Positions 32,160-42,600 of a stretch of DNA of 64,000 bases are shown piece after piece. The notes beneath the pieces are model-generated. The model searched no databases and had not been told where the DNA came from. It worked only from the letters and a program-made list of their open reading frames with translations. Location: NCBI RefSeq assembly GCF_056712565.1, contig NZ_CM160072.1, one strand, 5' to 3'. A program made the translations under genes and the position numbers. The first letter of the stretch is position 1, and each line of letters begins with the position of its first letter.

Positions 32160-32927
32160 CTATTTTTCGATTGCACCATCCACTATCACCATCGATCTTC
32201 CCTGAGCACAACGTTCAACTCTCCCGCGTACGCCGTATACCTGCGCAAGGCTCTCTGCATGGATCACCGTTTGCGGGTCGCCGCTGTCGATAAGTTTCCC
32301 CTCTTTCAGCATGATGACCTGGGCGGCATGCCGCAGTGCGATATTGATATCGTGTAAGACGACCAGCGTAACCATATTGCGTCTTCGCGTTTCGCGCGAT
32401 ACAACATCCATCACATGGAACTGATAATTGAGATCCAGCGCGCTCAGTGGTTCATCCAGCAATAATAATGCGGGGCGGCGAATAAGCGACTGTGCAAGCC
32501 CCACCAGCTGCTTCTGACCGCCGGACAGGCTATCGAGGTAGTTCATTGCCAGATGTGCGATGCCTAGCTCTTCGAGCAGCGCTATAGCCTGCGCCTGATT
32601 TTGCCCGGCGCCGGAGGCGCGCTGGGCGACAACCACCGACTCCAGCACCTGTAAATGCACGCCCTGCGGCAGGGACTGCGGCAGGAACACAACTTTTTCA
32701 GCCCGACGAGCAAACGGCAGCGATAAGAGATTCTCTTCATTCAGCCAGGCTTCGCCACTGGCGCGATTTAGCCCGGCCAGGGCGCGCAGTAGCGTTGATT
32801 TACCGCAGCCATTAGGCCCCAGCAGTACAGTGACTTCGCCGCGCGGCAGCGTAGAAATCGACAGATGCTCAATAATCCGCCGTTTGCCGTAACCGGCGCA
32901 CAGCGCATTAATCGTAAGCCCGCTCAT
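32160..32927 (-). CDS. ABC transporter ATP-binding protein (iron-siderophore/hemin FecE/HmuV-like)
   Basis: Walker A GPNGCGKST, signature LSGGQKQ, Walker B LLLLDEP. Confidence 0.85.
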   Translation of the reverse strand: MSGLTINALCAGYGKRRIIEHLSISTLPRGEVTVLLGPNGCGKSTLLRALAGLNRASGEAWLNEENLLSLPFARRAEKVVFLPQSLPQGVHLQVLESVVVAQRASGAGQNQAQAIALLEELGIAHLAMNYLDSLSGGQKQLVGLAQSLIRRPALLLLDEPLSALDLNYQFHVMDVVSRETRRRNMVTLVVLHDINIALRHAAQVIMLKEGKLIDSGDPQTVIHAESLAQVYGVRGRVERCAQGRSMVIVDGAIEK

Positions 32928-33982
32928 GACATACTCCCTCGATGACGCATTACAATGCTCAGAAAGAACGGAACGCCTACCAGCGAGGTAACAATTCCTA
33001 CCGGTAAAATGACACCGGGAATGATGTTCTTCGACGCTACCGAGGCCAGCGATAGCACCAGCCCACCGATAAGGATGCTTCCGGGCAAATAAAAGCGATG
33101 ATCTTCTCCCAGCAACAGGCGAGAAATATGCGGTGCAACCAGGCCAATAAAGCCAATTGGCCCCACAAACGCAACCGAAAGGGCCGCCAGCAGGCTGATG
33201 CGCAGCAGGGAACCCAGGCGCAAACGGCGAACATCAATGCCAAAACTCATCGCCCGCTCTTCGCCGAGGCGTAGCGCGGTAAGCTGCCAGGCACGACGCA
33301 GCGACCAGGGTAAAACAATCGCCATCGCCGCCGCCAGCACCGCCAGTTTCTCCCATGATGCGCGAGCCAGGCTGCCCATCGTCCAGAACACCAGGCCCTG
33401 CAAAGTATCTTCATCGGCGACAAACTGCATAATGGACACCAGCGCATTGAAGGTAAACACCAGCGCAATCCCAAACAGCACAACGCCCGACGTCGGCACG
33501 CGCGTCCAGCGGGTCAGACTATCGAGCAGCAGGGCGGACAGGAGCGCAAAAAGAAAAGCGTTTGCCGGTATAAACCCGCTTTCGGGAACGCCGGGAATAC
33601 CGATGCCCAGAACAATCGCCAGCGCTGCGCCAAAGGCCGCCGCCGACGAAACGCCAAGCGTAAACGGGCTGGCGAGGGAGTTATTCAGAATAGTTTGCAT
33701 CTCTGCCCCGGCCAAACCCAGCGCCATTCCTACCAGGAGCGCCATCAGCGCATAGGGCAAACGGATGTCCCAAACGATAACCCGCATGCCGTTAGTCGCC
33801 CCGGACGGATGCATCAAAGTCTTTATCAGCGAATGTAAAGGGAGCCCTGAGGGGCCGAGGGTGAAATCGAGCAGCAGCGAAGCAATGATAGCGATAAAAA
33901 TAACCGCCAGTATTACCAGACGCTGGCGAAAAAGCTGGCGATAGCGGTTCTCGACCGACAGCGTACTTTCCAATACAGTCAT
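32924..33982 (-). CDS. ABC transporter permease, FecCD family
   Basis: 352 aa polytopic membrane protein; 4-nt overlap with the ATPase gene. Confidence 0.8.
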   Translation of the reverse strand: MTVLESTLSVENRYRQLFRQRLVILAVIFIAIIASLLLDFTLGPSGLPLHSLIKTLMHPSGATNGMRVIVWDIRLPYALMALLVGMALGLAGAEMQTILNNSLASPFTLGVSSAAAFGAALAIVLGIGIPGVPESGFIPANAFLFALLSALLLDSLTRWTRVPTSGVVLFGIALVFTFNALVSIMQFVADEDTLQGLVFWTMGSLARASWEKLAVLAAAMAIVLPWSLRRAWQLTALRLGEERAMSFGIDVRRLRLGSLLRISLLAALSVAFVGPIGFIGLVAPHISRLLLGEDHRFYLPGSILIGGLVLSLASVASKNIIPGVILPVGIVTSLVGVPFFLSIVMRHRGSMS

Positions 33983-34000
33983 GGTTTTTCACAGCCTCCG

Positions 34001-34993
34001 TTAGCGCGGCGGATTGAGCACATCGCTCATCTGCGCATCGCTTAACGTCAGGCCAAAGAACTGCCGATAAAACTCACGCGTCTCTTTGCGTATATCCACA
34101 TCAGCAAATCGCGCAGGATAAAGCGTTTTCGCCAGCCACAAAAATTGCAGCGCCTCTTCGCTGGTTTCACGGCACCACCAGAACATTCCTTTCGGATTAA
34201 CGTAAACGCGATGATGAATGACCGCGTCCACGCTTGCCCACTGCGGAGAACTCAGAATGGCATCCGCGTCGCGCTTGTTCATCGCGATGATAACCGCCGG
34301 ATTGGCAGTGACAATTTTCTCCAGCGCGACTTCACCCGAACGATTTTGTTGATGCTCGCCAAACCAATTTTCAGCGATATTTTTGCCGCCGGCCAGGTCA
34401 ATCCAGTCCTGGTTTAGCGAGGGTCTACCGGTGGTGGTCAGCGGATTGCCCATACTGTGATAGAGCGACACGCGCTGTGACGCAGGAAGATCTTTCAGGC
34501 GCCCGGTGACCAGGGCCACGTTGCGATCGAAGTAGCGTTGATAGGCGAGCGCTTTTTGCTGCGCATCGGGCCCCAGCACCGCTGCCGTTTGCTGTACGCG
34601 CTGCGTTAACGCCCGCAGTGAATTCGCCTCAAACGCCAGCACCTGCACCCCAGCCTGTTTCAGCAACGCCTGTTGAGGCACTACCATATTCTGCGGTACA
34701 AAAAGCATATCGACCCCCAGCGCGATAATCTGTTCGGGATTGATTTCATGCCCGCTGTTTACGCTAACTGCTGCGACTTTCTCTATGCGCGGCAGGCTCT
34801 GGCGAAACAGGGGGATCCTTTTTGCAATCATCGAGGTTCCGACAATGTTATCGCCGTACCCCAGCATGGCAATAATGGTATTTTGCGCCGGCCACGGTGA
34901 CGCGATACGCACCTCCTTGTGCGTATTTTCTGCGTGCAGGCTGGCCGCCAGCAGCAGCGCCAGCAGCGGAAATAAACGGGAGAGTTTCATCAT
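34001..34993 (-). CDS. periplasmic iron-complex binding protein (ABC substrate-binding, class III)
   Basis: Signal peptide MMKLSRLFPLLALLLAASLHA; length and position between receptor and permease. Confidence 0.75.
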   Translation of the reverse strand: MMKLSRLFPLLALLLAASLHAENTHKEVRIASPWPAQNTIIAMLGYGDNIVGTSMIAKRIPLFRQSLPRIEKVAAVSVNSGHEINPEQIIALGVDMLFVPQNMVVPQQALLKQAGVQVLAFEANSLRALTQRVQQTAAVLGPDAQQKALAYQRYFDRNVALVTGRLKDLPASQRVSLYHSMGNPLTTTGRPSLNQDWIDLAGGKNIAENWFGEHQQNRSGEVALEKIVTANPAVIIAMNKRDADAILSSPQWASVDAVIHHRVYVNPKGMFWWCRETSEEALQFLWLAKTLYPARFADVDIRKETREFYRQFFGLTLSDAQMSDVLNPPR

Positions 34994-35000
34994 TTATCCA

Positions 35001-37166
35001 TCAGAAATCGAAGGTGACGGATGCACGCACTTCGCGGCCGCCGCCGATAAACGCACTTGGGGAACCGTTATCGCCATCGGTACCCGATGGGAAGATAGAA
35101 GCCCAGTAATGTTTATCAAACACGTTGTTTACCACCACGCGGAAAGTGGTTGGGACGTTGCTCACTTTCGTGGTGTAACGCGTTCCCAAATCCCATGTGG
35201 TATAGCTGCTGGCGTAAGAGGTGTTGGTATCGTTCGCCGCGCGTTTGCCCGTATAATGGACGTTAGCGCTGTAAACCCATTCCGGTATGGACGGCAAACT
35301 GTATTCCGCCAACAGATTGGCCTGCACTTTCGGCACGCCGACAACCTGTTTATTGCTGGTTGAGGCATTCGCCGTATCTTTCAGTTTCGGGTCGAGGAAG
35401 GTCACGCCGCTGTAAATATTCAGCCCCTGCCACACATTCCCGGCAGCGGTTAACTCAAGGCCGTTGTTAACCTGGTTACCCTGCTCTTTATACACGTTAT
35501 CCGTATCAAGATAGGCAAACGGACGTTCCAGTCGGAACAGCGCGGCGCCTAGATTCATCTCGCCGATGTCCGATTTTAGCCCCACTTCATACTGCTTGCT
35601 GCGATACGGGTTTAGCGTTTGACCGGCATTTTTTACGCTCTCATCCGTCGGTGCGGTACCGCCCTGCTCCAGCGAATCGGCATAGCTAACGTAGGCCATT
35701 GTGTTAGGGGTAATTTTATACATCAGCGCGGCGTTCGGACTTAAACCATTTTCATCAACCTGGTTCGTTTGATTACCGTGCTTATCGTAGTTTTTAGTCT
35801 GCAGCCAGCTCTGGCTGAGATAGAACATTGCCGACCACTGCGGCGTAAATGTCACCGTATCGCCGAGCGTAACGCTCTGCTGAGTATTTACGCTGGAGCG
35901 GTATCGCGGCCCGCCGGTGCGGATTTTGCCATCGCCCTGCTCATCTATCGCATCCGGGTGATACATATTTGTTGTACCCCAGCTATAGCTGGAACCTGTT
36001 CCTTTGGCACTATAAAGCGACCAGACATATCCCGTGGTAGAAAGTGACAGATCGTGGCCGATAGAGCCGGTATCAATATGACCATTCAGCCCGGCGGTGT
36101 TGCTCAGGACGCGAAAACGTCCGGCAGCGGTGGAATCCTTCATCGAACGAGAGATATCGCCCTGATTGTTGAGTATTTTACTGGAAACACTACGCATCGC
36201 GCGGTCAGCCTGCTGCCAGCCCACGCCAGCGTTCATGGACCAGTCGTCGTTAAAGTAGTGGATCAGGCGAGTGCTGATGGTATCGGTAGTGAGGTCGTTG
36301 CCCGCAGTGCTGAGCGCCAGATTTTTGTCCTTCGGATTCGGCGCAGACGGCAGTTTGACGTTCGGCCCATAGTTAAAGCTACCGACATAGCCTTTCTGGA
36401 TAAATTCGTAATGGCTGGCGTCGAGCTGTAGCTGAGTGCCCGGCTGAATATTCCAGTCGAGCGCAACGGAAACGAGTTTGCGACGCAGCGTGCTGTCATC
36501 CACATTGCCTTCCCCTTCCTGATCAAGCAGGTTCACGCGATAGCCAAACCGTTTGTTTTCATCAAAATGGCCACCCAGATCGGCATGGCCGGTAAACGCA
36601 CTGCGGCTTTGATAGCCCAGCGTCACTTTACGCAGCGTCTCTTCGGTTGGGCGCTTCGCCACGAAATTAAACTGCCCTGCTGGGCTCGCCGGGCCGTACA
36701 GCGCGCCGGTCAAACTGTTAAGCACATCCATGCGCTCAAGCATTTCCACCGGAAACGCGGTTGTTGAAACGATATTCAGCCCGTCCAGACGGCTGTTGGC
36801 CACCACGCTGCCCTGCATCCCCCGACTTTGCGGACGCCCGACATCCATTCCACCGCGCGCCTGCATTTGCGTACTGGGAGAGTATTTCAGCATCTCGCTG
36901 ACGCTTTGCGCCTGCTGATTTTCAATCATCTCTTTAGTAACAGTGGTGCTGGAATATGGTGTTTCGATCCAGGATTTCGTTCCCAGCGGGCCGACATCTA
37001 TATCGTTCGTTTTGAAACCGGCACCGGCGGCAGAATCGGTGGTGTCGGCGGCGGTGTTGCCCGTGACAATCATTTCATCTTCAGAAGTAGACGAGGCATG
37101 AGCATGAAGCGGTATGAAAGACGCTAATGCTGGCAAAAGCGCAGCGAAAGTTATTTGAGTTTTCAT
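35001..37166 (-). CDS. TonB-dependent outer-membrane siderophore/iron-complex receptor
   Basis: 721 aa; signal peptide, plug domain, C-terminal barrel ending in F; first gene of the four-gene uptake operon. Confidence 0.8.
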   Translation of the reverse strand: MKTQITFAALLPALASFIPLHAHASSTSEDEMIVTGNTAADTTDSAAGAGFKTNDIDVGPLGTKSWIETPYSSTTVTKEMIENQQAQSVSEMLKYSPSTQMQARGGMDVGRPQSRGMQGSVVANSRLDGLNIVSTTAFPVEMLERMDVLNSLTGALYGPASPAGQFNFVAKRPTEETLRKVTLGYQSRSAFTGHADLGGHFDENKRFGYRVNLLDQEGEGNVDDSTLRRKLVSVALDWNIQPGTQLQLDASHYEFIQKGYVGSFNYGPNVKLPSAPNPKDKNLALSTAGNDLTTDTISTRLIHYFNDDWSMNAGVGWQQADRAMRSVSSKILNNQGDISRSMKDSTAAGRFRVLSNTAGLNGHIDTGSIGHDLSLSTTGYVWSLYSAKGTGSSYSWGTTNMYHPDAIDEQGDGKIRTGGPRYRSSVNTQQSVTLGDTVTFTPQWSAMFYLSQSWLQTKNYDKHGNQTNQVDENGLSPNAALMYKITPNTMAYVSYADSLEQGGTAPTDESVKNAGQTLNPYRSKQYEVGLKSDIGEMNLGAALFRLERPFAYLDTDNVYKEQGNQVNNGLELTAAGNVWQGLNIYSGVTFLDPKLKDTANASTSNKQVVGVPKVQANLLAEYSLPSIPEWVYSANVHYTGKRAANDTNTSYASSYTTWDLGTRYTTKVSNVPTTFRVVVNNVFDKHYWASIFPSGTDGDNGSPSAFIGGGREVRASVTFDF

Positions 37167-37594
37167 GAATCACTGATCGTTATGTAAATATTTATATTAC
37201 GATCGGTGCATAGGCAAAATTATGATCCAGATCACACGTGAATGTAAGTTATTTACAAATTACGCTAACCTTCTGTCTCCGCTCTTTGCAGCATAAAAGT
37301 ATGGCGGCGCGTTGTTGAAAGCAGGAGCGGCCGGGTTGTCAGAAAGCTGGTTTGGACGCAAGTAATATATAACAACTCTGATTACCGCATACTGTCAGGA
37401 CAGTATCTACTTGAGCGTCCGCCTTTGGCACAAAGCGGACTGTCAGATTAGATTCAGACCTGTACTCATTAGCTGATACAAATCAGCCACATATACCTGC
37501 ATTCAAAATAATTTCAGAAAGATATTATCTCCGTGAATCCCCCGCCACCTTTCCGGTGCACGGGGTTTTGTCTTTTTTCACTGGGAATACATGT

Positions 37595-38029
37595 ATGAAT
37601 CCGTCTGATGCCATTGAGGCAATTGAAAAACCGCTCTCCTCCCTGCCTTACCCGATTTCCCGTCACATCCTGGAACATCTGCGCAAACTCACCCGTCACG
37701 AACCCGTGCCTGGCATTATGGGTAAAAGCGGGGCCGGTAAATCCTCACTCTGTAATGCACTGTTTCAGGGGGAGGTCACCCCGGTCAGTGCACTCATGAC
37801 AGTGCTTCCCGGACATGCCGCCATCCATCTGATGACACGCCTGCAGGACGAACTGCGCACGGAGTCTGTCCGCACTCAGACCCGTGAACAGTTTACCGGT
37901 GCGGTGGACCGGATATTTGACACGGCGGAGAGTGTCTGCATTGCCTCTGTTGCACGCACGGTTCTGCGCGCCGTCCGTGACTCGGTGGTCTCTGTTGCCC
38001 GCGCGGTATGGAACTGGATTTTCTTCTGA
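37595..38029 (+). pseudogene. yeeP: yeeP/yfjP-type prophage GTPase with an internal in-frame deletion of the GTPase core
   Basis: N-terminus with P-loop GIMGKSGAGKSSLCNALFQGEV and C-terminal tail ...VSVARAVWNWIFF are present, but the G3-G5 region is missing (145 aa instead of about 290). Confidence 0.55.
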
Positions 38030-38116
38030 ACCCGGTGGTGATGTACCAGGCTGTTGTTACAGATTTTTAACTCCATGAAAACACTATGCAAACGCAGCCA
38101 TACCCGGGGTGTCCCC

Positions 38117-38145
38117 TTGCGTTGTGTTCCTCAAGTTAATAGAAT
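38117..38145 (+). promoter_or_regulatory. candidate sigma70 promoter (-35 TTGCGT, 17-bp spacer, -10 TAGAAT) for the dynamin-like operon
   Basis: Hexamers read in sequence at 38117..38122 and 38140..38145. Confidence 0.45.
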
Positions 38146-38147
38146 AC

Positions 38148-38190
38148 ATCGATCGTTACTATTATATTGATCGTTATAAACGATCGTTTG
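38148..38190 (+). promoter_or_regulatory. cluster of three GATC (Dam) sites including the palindrome GATCGTTATAAACGATC, immediately downstream of the candidate -10
   Basis: GATC at 38151, 38169 and 38182; perfect palindrome at 38169..38185. Confidence 0.5.
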
Positions 38191-38246
38191 TAGTAAATGA
38201 CCTCCTCCGTGGTTGTCATGAAAATGCGTCTCAGGAAGGTTAAATA

Positions 38247-40631
38247 ATGCACGAAAAGAACATCGCCCTGCTTTGTGATGAAGCCGACCGACTTTTGCAA
38301 CTGAACATTAATCTGCTCCGGCAAATGGTTGAGGAGCCAGATGTGTTATCTGACAGTAAGAACGAAAACAGACTGCTTTTTGATAAACAGAAAGCACTGA
38401 AAAGAATTGAGGAGCTGGAGGGCGAACAAATCAAAACCGCCCGCAGGGAGATGGTGCTGGCTGTTGTCGGCACGATGAAAGCAGGCAAATCAACCACCAT
38501 CAACGCCATTGTGGGGCAGGAAATTCTGCCTAACCGTAACCGCCCCATGACCTCTGTACCGACGCTCATCCGCCACGTTCCCGGAAAAACTGAGCCGGTT
38601 CTCCATCTGGAACATATTCAGCCTGTCCGCAATTTATTAATCACACTGCAGGAAAAACTCGCCACCCCGGCAGGACAGCAGGTCGCACAGACCCTGCAGC
38701 AAACCGGGGATACCCGCGAACTGCTGGATATTCTGACGGATGATGGCTGGCTCAAAAATGAATACCACGGGGAGGAGGAAATCTTTACCGGACTGGCATC
38801 GTTAAACGATCTGGTTCGTCTTGCTGCGGCAATGGAGACTGAATTTCCTTTTGATGAATACGCAGAAGTGCAGAAACTGCCGGTGATCGACGTGGAATTC
38901 AGCCATCTGGTGGGGATGGATGCATGCCAGGGAACACTCACACTGCTGGATACCCCCGGCCCTAATGAGGCCGGACAACCGCAGATGGAAGTGATGATGC
39001 GGGATCAACTGCAGAAAGCCTCTGCGGTTCTGGCTGTGATGGATTACACCCAGATGAACTCAAAAGCGGATGAAGACGTCCGTAAAGAGCTTAATGCCAT
39101 TGCTGACGTATCAGCCGGCCGCCTGTTTGTACTGGTCAATAAATTTGATGAGAAAGACCGCAATGGCGATGGGGCAGATGCCGTACGCCAGAAAGTTCCG
39201 GCAATGCTGAACAGCGATGTGCTGCCCGCCTCCCGCGTTTATCCCGGATCCTCACGCCAGGCATACCTGGCTAACCGTGCGCTTCATGAGTTACGGAAAA
39301 ACGGAACCCTTCCTGTTGATGAAGCCTGGGTCGATGATTTTGTCAGGGAAGCCTTCGGTCGCATGAAAAAAGATTACGTCTGTAAAGACAGCGAACTGGC
39401 AACTGAAGGGGCGACAGACCTGTGGGAATGCTCACTTATCGATCAACTGATAACGGAAGTCATACTGAGTTCACACTCCAGAGCTGCGGCACTGGCGGTT
39501 GATTCTGCCGCCGCAAAACTGATGCAGAATGCAGAAAATATCAGTGAATACCTGTCGTTACGCCATCAGGGGCTGATGCAAAGTATTCAGTCACTGCAGG
39601 CGCATATCACCAGCCTGCTTGAGGATATCCGGGAAATAGCAGACTGTCAGGAGCAGGTGACCGCTGATGTCAGAATGGCCATGGAGGAGATCGATGCCAG
39701 AACCCGGGAATTACTGACGGGGGTCTGCACCTCACTGGAAGAGGAGCTGAATGACTATTTCAGAAGCGGTAAACGCAAAGAACAGCAAATGCTGGAGGAA
39801 GAAAATTCAGCGCAGCCCCGGGAGAGAAACGCATTCGCTTTCTTTCACGATATTTTCGGAACCGGAAATCAGCATGACAGGATGCGGGACTTTGATCCCG
39901 ACAGCCCCGAAATAAAATTCAGTGATCGCAGGGAAGCCCTTGAACTGATGACGCAAATCGAATCGACCGTGACCAGCCTGCACCGTGAGGCTGAAGCACA
40001 GTTCCGGCCTGAGCTGGAGAAAATCGTCAGCGGGATTGAAACAGGTTTTCGTGGCACGGCCCTGTACGCCACAGAAAACATTGCCGGTCGCATCAATACC
40101 CGCCTGGAGGATGAGGGCTTTACCGTAAAAATCAGTTTTCCGGCAGTCAGTCAGTTACAAACCCGGCTCGCGGTAAAAACAAATCTGAGTGCGCTTATGG
40201 AGGAAAGAACGGAGACCGTCACCCGTCGCCGTCGGCAGAGTGGTTTATGGGGAAAGATTTGTGGAGCGTTTGGCACCAGTGACTGGGGCTGGGAAACCTA
40301 TAAAGAGGATGTGAGCCGCAGTGTTATCAATATCAACACCGTCAGGAAGGAAGTTATGTCACTGACCCGGGCATATTTCGGGGAGCTGCAGGCATCCATT
40401 GAGCAGGATATTAACCAGCCCGTCCGCCAGGAAATCGATGCCTTTTTCTGCGCATTCAGGGAGAAAGTTGAACAACTGCGTAACACGCTGATTCAGAGCT
40501 CTGAAGATCATAAACGCGATCAGCAGGCACAGGAACGGCTTACCAGGCGACTTCAGGCATTAAATGAAAGGGTTCCTGAGCTCATTACTGACAGTAAGGC
40601 GCTGAGGGAAGAGCTGGAGACAATGCTGTGA
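38247..40631 (+). CDS. bacterial dynamin-like large GTPase (CrfC/YjdA-type)
   Basis: 794 aa; G1 GTMKAGKSTTINAIVG, G3 LLDTPGPNE, G4 LVNKFDEKD, long coiled-coil C-terminal half; RBS aggaagg 8 nt before ATG. Confidence 0.8.
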   Translation: MHEKNIALLCDEADRLLQLNINLLRQMVEEPDVLSDSKNENRLLFDKQKALKRIEELEGEQIKTARREMVLAVVGTMKAGKSTTINAIVGQEILPNRNRPMTSVPTLIRHVPGKTEPVLHLEHIQPVRNLLITLQEKLATPAGQQVAQTLQQTGDTRELLDILTDDGWLKNEYHGEEEIFTGLASLNDLVRLAAAMETEFPFDEYAEVQKLPVIDVEFSHLVGMDACQGTLTLLDTPGPNEAGQPQMEVMMRDQLQKASAVLAVMDYTQMNSKADEDVRKELNAIADVSAGRLFVLVNKFDEKDRNGDGADAVRQKVPAMLNSDVLPASRVYPGSSRQAYLANRALHELRKNGTLPVDEAWVDDFVREAFGRMKKDYVCKDSELATEGATDLWECSLIDQLITEVILSSHSRAAALAVDSAAAKLMQNAENISEYLSLRHQGLMQSIQSLQAHITSLLEDIREIADCQEQVTADVRMAMEEIDARTRELLTGVCTSLEEELNDYFRSGKRKEQQMLEEENSAQPRERNAFAFFHDIFGTGNQHDRMRDFDPDSPEIKFSDRREALELMTQIESTVTSLHREAEAQFRPELEKIVSGIETGFRGTALYATENIAGRINTRLEDEGFTVKISFPAVSQLQTRLAVKTNLSALMEERTETVTRRRRQSGLWGKICGAFGTSDWGWETYKEDVSRSVININTVRKEVMSLTRAYFGELQASIEQDINQPVRQEIDAFFCAFREKVEQLRNTLIQSSEDHKRDQQAQERLTRRLQALNERVPELITDSKALREELETML

Positions 40632-41533
40632 CTTCACCATTTATTCAACAAATTGCTGATAACCGGGTATGTCAGGTACTCACCTGTCTTCCTGAAAAAT
40701 TTGTGGTTGATTTCGCAAACGGAATCGATGTTGCACAGGAGCATATCCGCACGGCCGGAGAGCGCACGTTCTTCCGGCGTTTAAAAGAGGGACTGACCGG
40801 CGAAGGCGCTGCACGGCAGAATGCCATCAATGCTTCGGTTGCACAGGGCCTTGAGGCGTCCCTGCGCTGGCTGACGGAGCTGACAACGTCACTTGCCACC
40901 ACAAACTACGCGATTACCCGGGTAAACGACAGGGTCAGTTCACTGGTCAGTGATACTGCCAGGCTGGCGCATTATTCCGCAGATACACGGGAGCAGTTAC
41001 TCATCCTGGCCGATCAGGTTCACCATAAACTGAATCATCTTGAAGAAAAACTCCACCGTGTTGACCAGGTTCAGCGGGCGCAGTTACATCTTGAGCAGAT
41101 ATTCTCATGGTGGAGCGCCGGGCGATATGCGTCATTTTCCCCTGCCGGACGTTGTTATGTGGCGCTTGAAGAGCTTCGCTGGGGCGCGTTTGGTGATGTG
41201 ATACGTCAGGGCGAAACAGGCCAGGTTAACCAGCTACTGGATATTCTCAGACATAAAGCATTAACGCAGATGGCACAGGAGAGTGGCGGTAGTGCAACCG
41301 TGCGTCTGAACACTCTGGACTGGCTTGGTGGTCAGGGCCGGGAGCAGGCAGATAACGAGTGGCATGACGCGATTAACTGGCTGGGAGACTGGTGCAGTGA
41401 AGAGCAGCATCCGGTGATCTGGTCAACCACGCAGGCTGCAGAACACTTACCGGTTCGCATGCCTCGCCTCTGCTCTGCAGAACGCCTCTCTGAAAGTATG
41501 GTCGATGAAATATTTCAGAAGGGGGCTGCATGA
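40628..41533 (+). CDS. dynamin-associated partner protein (possibly YjcZ-like), function unknown
   Basis: 301 aa; GTG start overlapping the dynamin stop (GTGA overlap), implying translational coupling. Confidence 0.55.
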   Translation: MTSPFIQQIADNRVCQVLTCLPEKFVVDFANGIDVAQEHIRTAGERTFFRRLKEGLTGEGAARQNAINASVAQGLEASLRWLTELTTSLATTNYAITRVNDRVSSLVSDTARLAHYSADTREQLLILADQVHHKLNHLEEKLHRVDQVQRAQLHLEQIFSWWSAGRYASFSPAGRCYVALEELRWGAFGDVIRQGETGQVNQLLDILRHKALTQMAQESGGSATVRLNTLDWLGGQGREQADNEWHDAINWLGDWCSEEQHPVIWSTTQAAEHLPVRMPRLCSAERLSESMVDEIFQKGAA

Positions 41534-42600
41534 GTACAGAAATGAAAACGGGGCTGGTGCTGTCCGGTGGCGGGGCGGTGGGCGCTTATCAGGCGGGAGT
41601 GGTTAAGGCACTGGCAGAGTGTGGTACACAGATCAGCATGGTTTCAGGGGCCAGCATTGGCGCATTCAATGGTGCCATTATCGCGGCCTCTCCCGATCTG
41701 TCAGAAGCTGCCGTACGCCTGGAGGCGCTCTGGGATCATCTGGGGAATAATCAGGTGCTGTCGGTAAACCGATTGGTTTACTTTTCATTGCTGAAAAAAT
41801 TGTTCCAGGCAATGAACCTCTGCCAGATCCCCGGACGTGCAGGAGCACTGCTTACGACGCTTCTTCGCCATATATCGATACTCAACGGGTTTGACAATCT
41901 GATGGCTCAGCCGTTGTTGTCAGATGAGCCCCTGACAGCGCTGTTGGATCATTATCTTGATACTGATGCTCTGGCAGACGGGCTACCGCTGTATGTGTCG
42001 CTGTACCCCACAGAAGGGGGCATGCAGGATATTATTGACTGCATTCGTGCTGAACTGGGTGCCGGAACCACGAAAAACGCCGTTTTTCAGCATATCCAGA
42101 GCCTGCCCCGCGGACAGCAGAAAGAGGCTCTGCTTGCGTCAGCCGCGCTGCCCCTGCTGTTCCGTCCCCGTGAGGTTCAGGGGACAATGTTCGGTGATGG
42201 TGGTATGGGAGGATGGCGAAATATGCAGGGAAATACCCCTGTGACGCCTCTGGTCGATGCCGGATGCAATATGGTGATTGTGACGCATCTGAGTGACGGT
42301 TCTTTATGGGATCGCCAGGCTTTTCCGGACACCACAATCCTTGAGATCCGTCCCCGGAAAAGGCTGAAATATGCAGGTGATGGTGACAACAGCGGCGGTC
42401 TGCTCAGTTTCACGTTGGCACATACCGACGCCTGGCGTCAGCAGGGCTATGAAGACACGATGCTGACGATGGAGCATATCCGGAAACCGCTGGCAGCACG
42501 TCAGGTACTGTCCCGGTCAGAAACGGTGTTGCAGAAAAGTCTGGAGATAACGGAAGAGGCAGATTTGGCACTGAGAAACGCGATGGCCCGGATTAAATAA
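41530..42600 (+). CDS. patatin-like phospholipase
   Basis: 356 aa; glycine-rich oxyanion loop LSGGGAVGAYQAG, nucleophile elbow GASIG (GxSxG), catalytic-Asp DGG motif (FGDGGMGG); ATGA overlap with the preceding gene. Confidence 0.8.
   Translation: MSTEMKTGLVLSGGGAVGAYQAGVVKALAECGTQISMVSGASIGAFNGAIIAASPDLSEAAVRLEALWDHLGNNQVLSVNRLVYFSLLKKLFQAMNLCQIPGRAGALLTTLLRHISILNGFDNLMAQPLLSDEPLTALLDHYLDTDALADGLPLYVSLYPTEGGMQDIIDCIRAELGAGTTKNAVFQHIQSLPRGQQKEALLASAALPLLFRPREVQGTMFGDGGMGGWRNMQGNTPVTPLVDAGCNMVIVTHLSDGSLWDRQAFPDTTILEIRPRKRLKYAGDGDNSGGLLSFTLAHTDAWRQQGYEDTMLTMEHIRKPLAARQVLSRSETVLQKSLEITEEADLALRNAMARIK

Follow-up and report, generated by a model that had tools for sequence, protein, structure and literature searches.

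The 64,000 nucleotides of DNA analysed here (contig NZ_CM160072.1 of NCBI RefSeq assembly GCF_056712565.1; the whole stretch is called the window) contain a four-gene uptake operon, known as c2518-c2515 in Escherichia coli CFT073, whose first gene encodes a TonB-dependent receptor and is preceded by a palindrome. We propose that this palindrome is very probably an operator for the molybdate-sensing regulator ModE, that the operon is likely to be repressed by molybdate, and that the best explanation of the locus as a whole, to which we assign a probability of roughly 0.65, is a ModE-repressed TonB/ATP-binding cassette (ABC) system scavenging molybdenum or tungsten. The part of the window between 32000 and 38400 is 100% identical to positions 2352303-2358703 of CFT073, a CFT073 position being the window position plus 2320303, and a near-unchanged copy of it is present in about 900 of 5426 complete E. 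coli genomes.

The published consensus for ModE binding in E. coli is ATCGNTATATA-[N6]-TATATANCGAT (PMC545781). The predicted ModE operator in the window, at 37176-37203, reads ATCGTAATATA-AATATT-TACATAACGAT on the minus strand and agrees with this consensus at 18 of 20 positions. When the same scoring is applied to known ModE targets of E. coli K-12, modA and moaA reach 16/20 and dmsA 17/20. At up to three mismatches this is the only match to the consensus in the 64 kb, the second-best score within the window is 14/20, and no match was obtained in any of 100 shuffles. The uniqueness of the match, the result of the shuffles and the conservation of the site across genera, described below, make it evident that the palindrome exceeds what chance would give. 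We also considered dyads of the TyrR, Zur, NsrR and PurR type, which we take to have a spacing or half-sites unlike those of the palindrome.

A first, sequence-only reading of this DNA had placed an inverted repeat with a 16-nt spacer close to the receptor start. The repeat is there, with GATCGTTA at 37175-37182 and TACGATC at 37198-37204, 9-38 nt upstream of the ATG at 37166, and its spacer measures 15 nt. In an inverted-repeat search the full E. coli palindrome extends over 37171-37208, as two arms of 19 nt each (37171-37189 and 37190-37208) that are 84% complementary and meet without a gap. It includes two GATC sequences, at 37175-37178 and 37201-37204, which arise in E. coli from the ends of the ModE consensus, ATCG...CGAT, where these happen to be flanked by a G and a C.

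The comparison with the operator of the molybdate transport operon modABC is instructive. The K-12 modA operator, taken from the genome, is CGTTATATT-GTCGCC-TACATAACG, and the site in the window, read in the same way, is CGTAATATA-AATATT-TACATAACG; the dyad and the N6 spacing are the same, the right half is identical, and each site is located just upstream of the ATG of the first gene of an uptake system, an arrangement suited to repression by the metal taken up. However, the two differ in three respects: the c2518 site fits the consensus better (18/20 against 16/20), its ATCG and CGAT ends create in E. coli two Dam sites that the modA operator does not have, and the genes behind it encode a TonB-dependent receptor and a type II (FecCD/Peripla_BP_2) importer, whereas those behind the modA operator encode the type I importer ModABC.

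Orthologues of the receptor were collected from one genome per species and their leaders were aligned. Together with the E. coli window, the 16 orthologous loci, whose receptors are 73-94% identical to the one in the window, give 17 sequences, among which are the genera Pseudocitrobacter, Cedecea, Kluyvera, Pluralibacter, Klebsiella, Citrobacter, Intestinirhabdus, Leclercia, Serratia, Brenneria and Enterobacter. In this alignment every column of the 24-bp core CGTAATATA-N6-TAyATAACG is conserved at 90% or more, compared with 30-60% in the flanks. All 17 leaders hold a ModE-like site scoring 16-19/20, and in 15 of them it occupies the interval from -37/-39 to -10/-12 relative to the ATG. Four further and more distant loci, found through the binding protein, belong to Parahaliea, Providencia, Mixta and Pantoea; in each of them the best ModE match of the locus scores 16-18/20 and lies upstream of the receptor gene. 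Altogether, 21 loci from about 20 genera keep a ModE-like site at 16-19/20, and in each locus it is the top match. In Citrobacter koseri NCTC10786 and Enterobacter sp. EA-1 the receptor gene is broken up into several open reading frames (ORFs), through pseudogene formation or assembly frameshifts; both still retain the upstream ModE-like site, which has a 7-nt spacer in the Enterobacter strain.

Upstream of the palindrome, at 37221-37236 on the minus strand, the sequence TGTGATCTGGATCATA resembles a site for an activator of the CRP/FNR family (9/10 for CRP and 8/10 for FNR; the FNR match is 9/10 at the orthologous site in several other genera). The centre of this site is exactly 39 bp upstream of the centre of the ModE site in the E. 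coli window and in 12 of the 16 orthologous leaders, and 40 bp upstream in two more, while among the four distant loci Providencia and Pantoea possess a site of this type at 39 bp with a match of 8-9/10. The chance of a match of at least 8/10 at one fixed position is about 4e-4. If the centre of the activator site, 37228.5, is set as -41.5, according to class II geometry, the hexamer TAATAT at 37199-37194 on the minus strand, which lies inside the left ModE half-site and is invariant among the leaders, becomes the predicted -10, and transcription is predicted to start near 37187. The ModE site would then extend from about -16 to +12, a position that we infer to be that of a repressor, as at modA. 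A promoter scan proposed a different solution, CTTACA-18-CATAAT at 37248-37219, which would put the operator at about +9 to +36 and would be repressive as well; conservation of its -10 does not extend to other genera, and we demoted this solution to a second possibility. With either candidate promoter, the ModE site overlaps or follows the predicted start.

These elements can be assembled into a putative mechanism. An activator of the CRP/FNR family, at class II distance upstream, would drive the receptor promoter. In a cell well supplied with molybdate (or tungstate), ModE-molybdate would bind the operator, cover the predicted -10 hexamer and the start site, and keep the operon off, while molybdenum scarcity would allow its expression. 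The metal, most likely chelated, for example in a catecholate complex, would then cross the outer membrane through the TonB-dependent receptor, and a type II ABC importer similar to MolBC-A or Yiu would move it across the inner membrane.

Concerning the transporter, the first reading had described a receptor, a binding protein, a single permease and a single ATPase, and both the ORFs and the Pfam domains agree with this layout. The four ORFs are co-directional on the minus strand. They encode the receptor c2518 (C_RS11950; 35001-37166; Pfam Plug and TonB_dep_Rec_b-barrel, NCBIfam TIGR01783 at 287.9 bits with a cut-off of 223.5), a class III periplasmic substrate-binding protein lying between c2518 and c2516 (34001-34993; Pfam Peripla_BP_2), the FecCD-family type II ABC permease c2516 (32924-33982; Pfam FecCD, 4.8e-82) and the ABC transporter ATPase c2515 (32160-32927; Pfam ABC_tran). 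The names c2515 and c2516 were fixed by mapping published primers onto the ATPase ORF (32908-32927) and the permease ORF (33953). By Pfam and NCBIfam, c2518-c2515 therefore combines a siderophore-type receptor with a Peripla_BP_2/FecCD/ATPase importer. The description of the operon as one for iron-complex uptake was right as far as the generic family annotation goes, but the conserved regulatory signal points to molybdate control.

Among known systems, MolBC-A of Haemophilus influenzae (HI1470-HI1472), which transports molybdate and tungstate, is likewise composed of a class III binding protein, one FecCD permease and one ATPase, and MolA is the second-closest solved relative of our binding protein both by sequence and by fold. 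By sequence, the best match in the PDB is an uncharacterised Veillonella protein (4ovk, 4e-24), followed by MolA (HI_1472, 3psa, 5.9e-16); with the AlphaFold model of the binding protein (pLDDT, the predicted local distance difference test, 88.7), Foldseek again places 4ovk first and MolA second (TM score 0.74, 24% identity). The literature examined on MolBC-A mentions no gene for a TonB-dependent receptor alongside it. YiuABC-YiuR and the siderophore systems of the FemA/BauA type share with c2518-c2515 the four-gene layout and a receptor of the TIGR01783 family, and YiuA is similar in fold to the binding protein. However, these systems are regulated by Fur, while the c2518 leader has no Fur box, shows Fur occupancy near background and carries a conserved predicted ModE operator instead. 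The attempt to assign the substrate by homology was abandoned, since sequence and fold searches with the binding protein, the permease and the receptor do not single out relatives of one kind, be it molybdate, nickel-chelate or iron-catecholate. Homologues from Negativicutes, at 24-28% identity, were set aside as too distant to inform function. We give a physiological role in the uptake of molybdenum or tungsten about even odds.

The composition of the locus varies outside E. coli. At six loci of Serratia, Brenneria, Providencia, Mixta and Pantoea, only the receptor and binding-protein genes are found behind the ModE-like site, without a dedicated permease and ATPase, and in Mixta and Pantoea this pair comes after a separate ABC operon with two permeases. 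In Brenneria the receptor and binding-protein genes adjoin the gene for the large subunit of a molybdoenzyme of the xanthine dehydrogenase type, together with XdhC, a neighbourhood that is mildly supportive of a molybdenum link.

Several observations count against the molybdenum or tungsten hypothesis. The receptor belongs to the siderophore-receptor subfamily (TIGR01783); among solved structures, FemA, BauA and the enantio-pyochelin receptor are nearest to it. YiuA (iron/catecholate) and CeuE of Helicobacter pylori (nickel chelate) follow MolA closely in the Foldseek search and are nearly as close to the binding protein as MolA itself, and uncharacterised proteins reach almost equal scores. 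The permease is nearer to the heme permeases HmuU (5e-49) and BhuU (2.5e-48) than to MolB (HI1471, 2.6e-40), with BtuC at 2.5e-34. As regards the promoter, a CRP/FNR-type site was looked for and found to be absent in the two Serratia leaders, and Parahaliea and Mixta have a weak one (6/10). In Providencia burhodogranariea the ModE-like site (16/20) is directly followed by a Fur-like box of 16/19, the pair lying between about -201 and -158 relative to the annotated start of the receptor, which may indicate dual metal control in that lineage. Moreover, a Fur chromatin immunoprecipitation sequencing (ChIP-seq) experiment in CFT073 has a summit of 39.1 at 2357547, that is, window position 37244 (PMC7157518 Table S5A), about 15 bp upstream of the CRP/FNR-like site. 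Finally, mutants of c2515 and c2516 in avian pathogenic E. coli (APEC) are reported to grow poorly with dipyridyl and to contain less cellular iron, and the genes have been linked to virulence (PMC8075096).

The receptor subfamily with its FemA and BauA relatives, the resemblance of the binding protein to YiuA with iron and catecholate fragments, the iron phenotypes of the APEC mutants and the Providencia pair of sites would all suit an alternative in which the ModE site is real but the cargo is an iron-siderophore, and ModE couples iron supply to molybdenum status, for instance because of the Fe-S enzymes in cofactor synthesis. We consider this unlikely, although it is the strongest competitor. 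Judging from the position of the site, repression would set in when molybdate is abundant, as expected of molybdenum uptake and not of an iron supply for the cofactor. Furthermore, 20 of the 21 leaders have no conserved Fur box, their best Fur matches being at background level (11-13/19 in the orthologous leaders), with Providencia as the only exception, and the genes are not listed as changed by fur deletion or by iron limitation in CFT073.

A second alternative, that c2518-c2515 is a classical iron operon repressed by Fur through a box that was missed, the palindrome being incidental, appears improbable. It can draw on the annotation of the family as one of iron-complex transport, on the phenotypes of the APEC mutants and on the ChIP-seq peak just described. 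However, the best match to the 19-mer Fur consensus in the c2518 leader is 12/19, a score equalled by 34% of shuffles, in line with the first reading, which had found no convincing Fur box upstream. The promoter of hma (c2482), which is located in the same window and served as a positive control, has a Fur box of 16/19 at 1834-1858. In the ChIP-seq data genuine iron promoters have values of 500-5300 and the list ends at about 14 (PMC7157518 Table S5A); the signal at c2518 is thus 10-100 times below that of real iron promoters and near the floor. With ChIP-exo, the variant of the method that uses an exonuclease, Fur peaks in CFT073 are found at 2321495 and 2322254, and then none until 2470784, so that c2518 has no peak; the one at 2322254 was assigned to C_RS11765 and agrees with the ChIP-seq summit of hma (PMC10164565 supplement). 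The genes c2518-c2515 are also missing from those CFT073 tables of the Fur regulon and of expression upon fur deletion and iron limitation that were examined, and the conservation of the palindrome is far too high for an incidental feature. With regard to hma, the large Fur ChIP-seq and ChIP-exo peaks assigned to it in CFT073 are about 120 bp from the box at 1834-1858. We also considered whether yoeA of K-12 might be a remnant of c2518 and rejected this, since yoeA is a homologue of hma, an IS2-disrupted remnant of that receptor.

The first reading had also suggested that the GATC-containing palindrome might be a Dam-sensitive site, or an operator shared with the neighbouring dynamin operon and tying the two units together. 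We judge this still less probable, and as a conserved mechanism it is largely refuted. What had recommended it is a set of four GATC sequences within 60 bp (37175, 37201, 37224 and 37230, the last two inside the CRP/FNR-type site) and the 10-mer TGATCGTTAT, which does recur as reported, at 37174 and 38168 with no other plus-strand copy in the window, the second copy lying in a leader that resembles a true Dam/OxyR switch. However, among the 17 aligned sequences the left flanking GATC is present in 11 and the right one in 3, both occurring together only in the two E. coli sequences, and the GATCs within the CRP/FNR-type site are likewise variable. The two leaders also separate clearly when scored for both regulators: against the OxyR consensus the c2518 leader does not exceed a background score of 12/20, and against the ModE consensus the dynamin leader stops at 14/20. 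In addition, of the 5426 complete E. coli genomes 1985 have the dynamin leader and about 900 the uptake operon, and therefore they are separate elements and not one unit. The caution expressed at the time, that the common 10-mer could be a coincidence, was well placed, given that the two leaders are of different operator types. The shorter word GATCGTTA has three plus-strand copies and no copy of its complement in the 64 kb, which is about the chance level, and the three copies fall in two different operator types.

The least probable explanation, a hairpin of the 5' leader, in RNA or DNA, through which the palindrome would control translation, stability or attenuation, has in its favour a predicted RNA fold of 37215-37150 (minus strand) at -10.2 kcal/mol with a z-score of -2.67, but the stem core shows no compensatory change across 17 distinct sequences, 16 of which share an A.A mismatch at a symmetric position, and in most genera the outer pairs of the stem are disrupted. 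If transcription starts near 37187, as predicted, half of the palindrome would remain untranscribed. Rfam gives no family match (none at E up to 1, none at the gathering score in 10 related loci). No riboswitch was found at the Negativicutes homologue loci either.

If the operon is indeed a ModE-repressed system for molybdenum or tungsten, the consequences go beyond this locus. The general assumption is that molybdate passes through the Gram-negative outer membrane passively, ModABC being treated as the high-affinity route. Molybdenum is the cofactor metal of the nitrate, dimethyl sulfoxide and trimethylamine N-oxide reductases and of the formate dehydrogenases, molybdoenzymes that fuel the blooms of enterobacteria during gut inflammation and at which tungstate-based microbiota editing is aimed. 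Active scavenging of molybdenum would then have to be admitted for enterobacteria, including uropathogenic E. coli (UPEC), APEC and the probiotic strain Nissle 1917. The absence of c2518-c2515 from the Fur regulon would be explained, and these genes, which are grouped with the UPEC/APEC 'iron receptors' and have been linked to APEC virulence (PMC8075096), would need to be re-annotated. More tentatively, and with less confidence than we place in any part of the regulatory reading, the locus may represent a so far unrecognised TonB-dependent route for molybdenum or tungsten in Enterobacterales and in at least one marine gammaproteobacterium, using a chelate (a 'molybdophore'), repressed by ModE-molybdate and activated by a regulator of the CRP/FNR family, and acquired on an island by extraintestinal pathogenic E. 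coli of group B2 and by Nissle 1917; in E. coli the Dam sites at the ends of the operator could make binding sensitive to methylation and so give variation from cell to cell. Our literature search, whose coverage was incomplete so that an earlier description is possible, found no paper in which c2518 or a TonB-dependent receptor is tied to ModE or molybdate.

The first reading had also regarded the operon as acquired, and its surroundings bear this out. The genes c2518-c2515 are part of an island that adjoins cobU and also carries insertion sequence (IS) elements, some of them close by, together with hma and a CP4-44-like module. The G+C content of the operon is 55%, versus 49.7% for the whole window. 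In five loci of Pseudocitrobacter, Kluyvera, Pluralibacter, Klebsiella and Citrobacter the orthologous locus is chromosomal, with the run pnuC-zitB-ybgS-aroG upstream, and in four of these five genera, Kluyvera being the exception, the complete operon is followed by gpmA; the operon is thus located between aroG and gpmA, genes that in K-12 directly follow one another. The E. coli receptor is 94% identical to that of Pseudocitrobacter. From this identity and from the chromosomal position between aroG and gpmA in relatives, the E. coli copy seems to have been imported on an island from a related genus.

The second copy of the 10-mer belongs to an element of its own. The leader of the dynamin operon spans 38100-38246, and the operon behind it (38247-42600) encodes dynamin-like, YjcZ/RdcB-like and patatin-like proteins. 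Within the leader, at 38140-38184 on the plus strand, we recognise a putative switch of the agn43 type (OxyR and Dam), with a -10-like TAGAAT at 38140-38145 and GATC sequences at 38151, 38169 and 38182. This leader, whose sequence derives from the agn43/cah family, aligns with the regulatory regions of K-12 flu (agn43) and O157 cah, and the three GATCs are invariant in five of five sequences, spaced by 18 and 13 nt here as against 19 and 13 nt in flu. Its match to the OxyR consensus at 38148 is 16/20, the best in the window, while K-12 flu scores 14/20. From these features we predict that the dynamin-like operon is phase-variable through Dam and OxyR; the literature search found no paper joining dynamin with OxyR and Dam. 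The c2518 palindrome, differently from this switch, measures 28 bp across its outer ATCG and CGAT, has no homology to agn43 and does not conserve its GATCs, and for these reasons, together with its OxyR score, an OxyR/Dam operator at c2518 was rejected. ModE and OxyR have both been classed with the LysR-type DNA-binding domains (PMC11672702), and the ATCGTTAT-like half-site common to the two leaders may reflect this relationship.

Between the uptake operon and the dynamin leader, the region 37417-38029 contains a truncated yeeP-like GTPase ORF (37556-38029), annotated as hypothetical in CFT073. In more than 4000 E. coli genomes, GTPase genes are preceded by a copy of the segment just 5' of this ORF (about 37417-37559). 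Two short palindromes, ATACTGTC-AG-GACAGTAT and TCCGCCTTTGgcaCAAAGCGGA, were recognised by eye at about 37389-37440, between the receptor promoter and the yeeP-like fragment.

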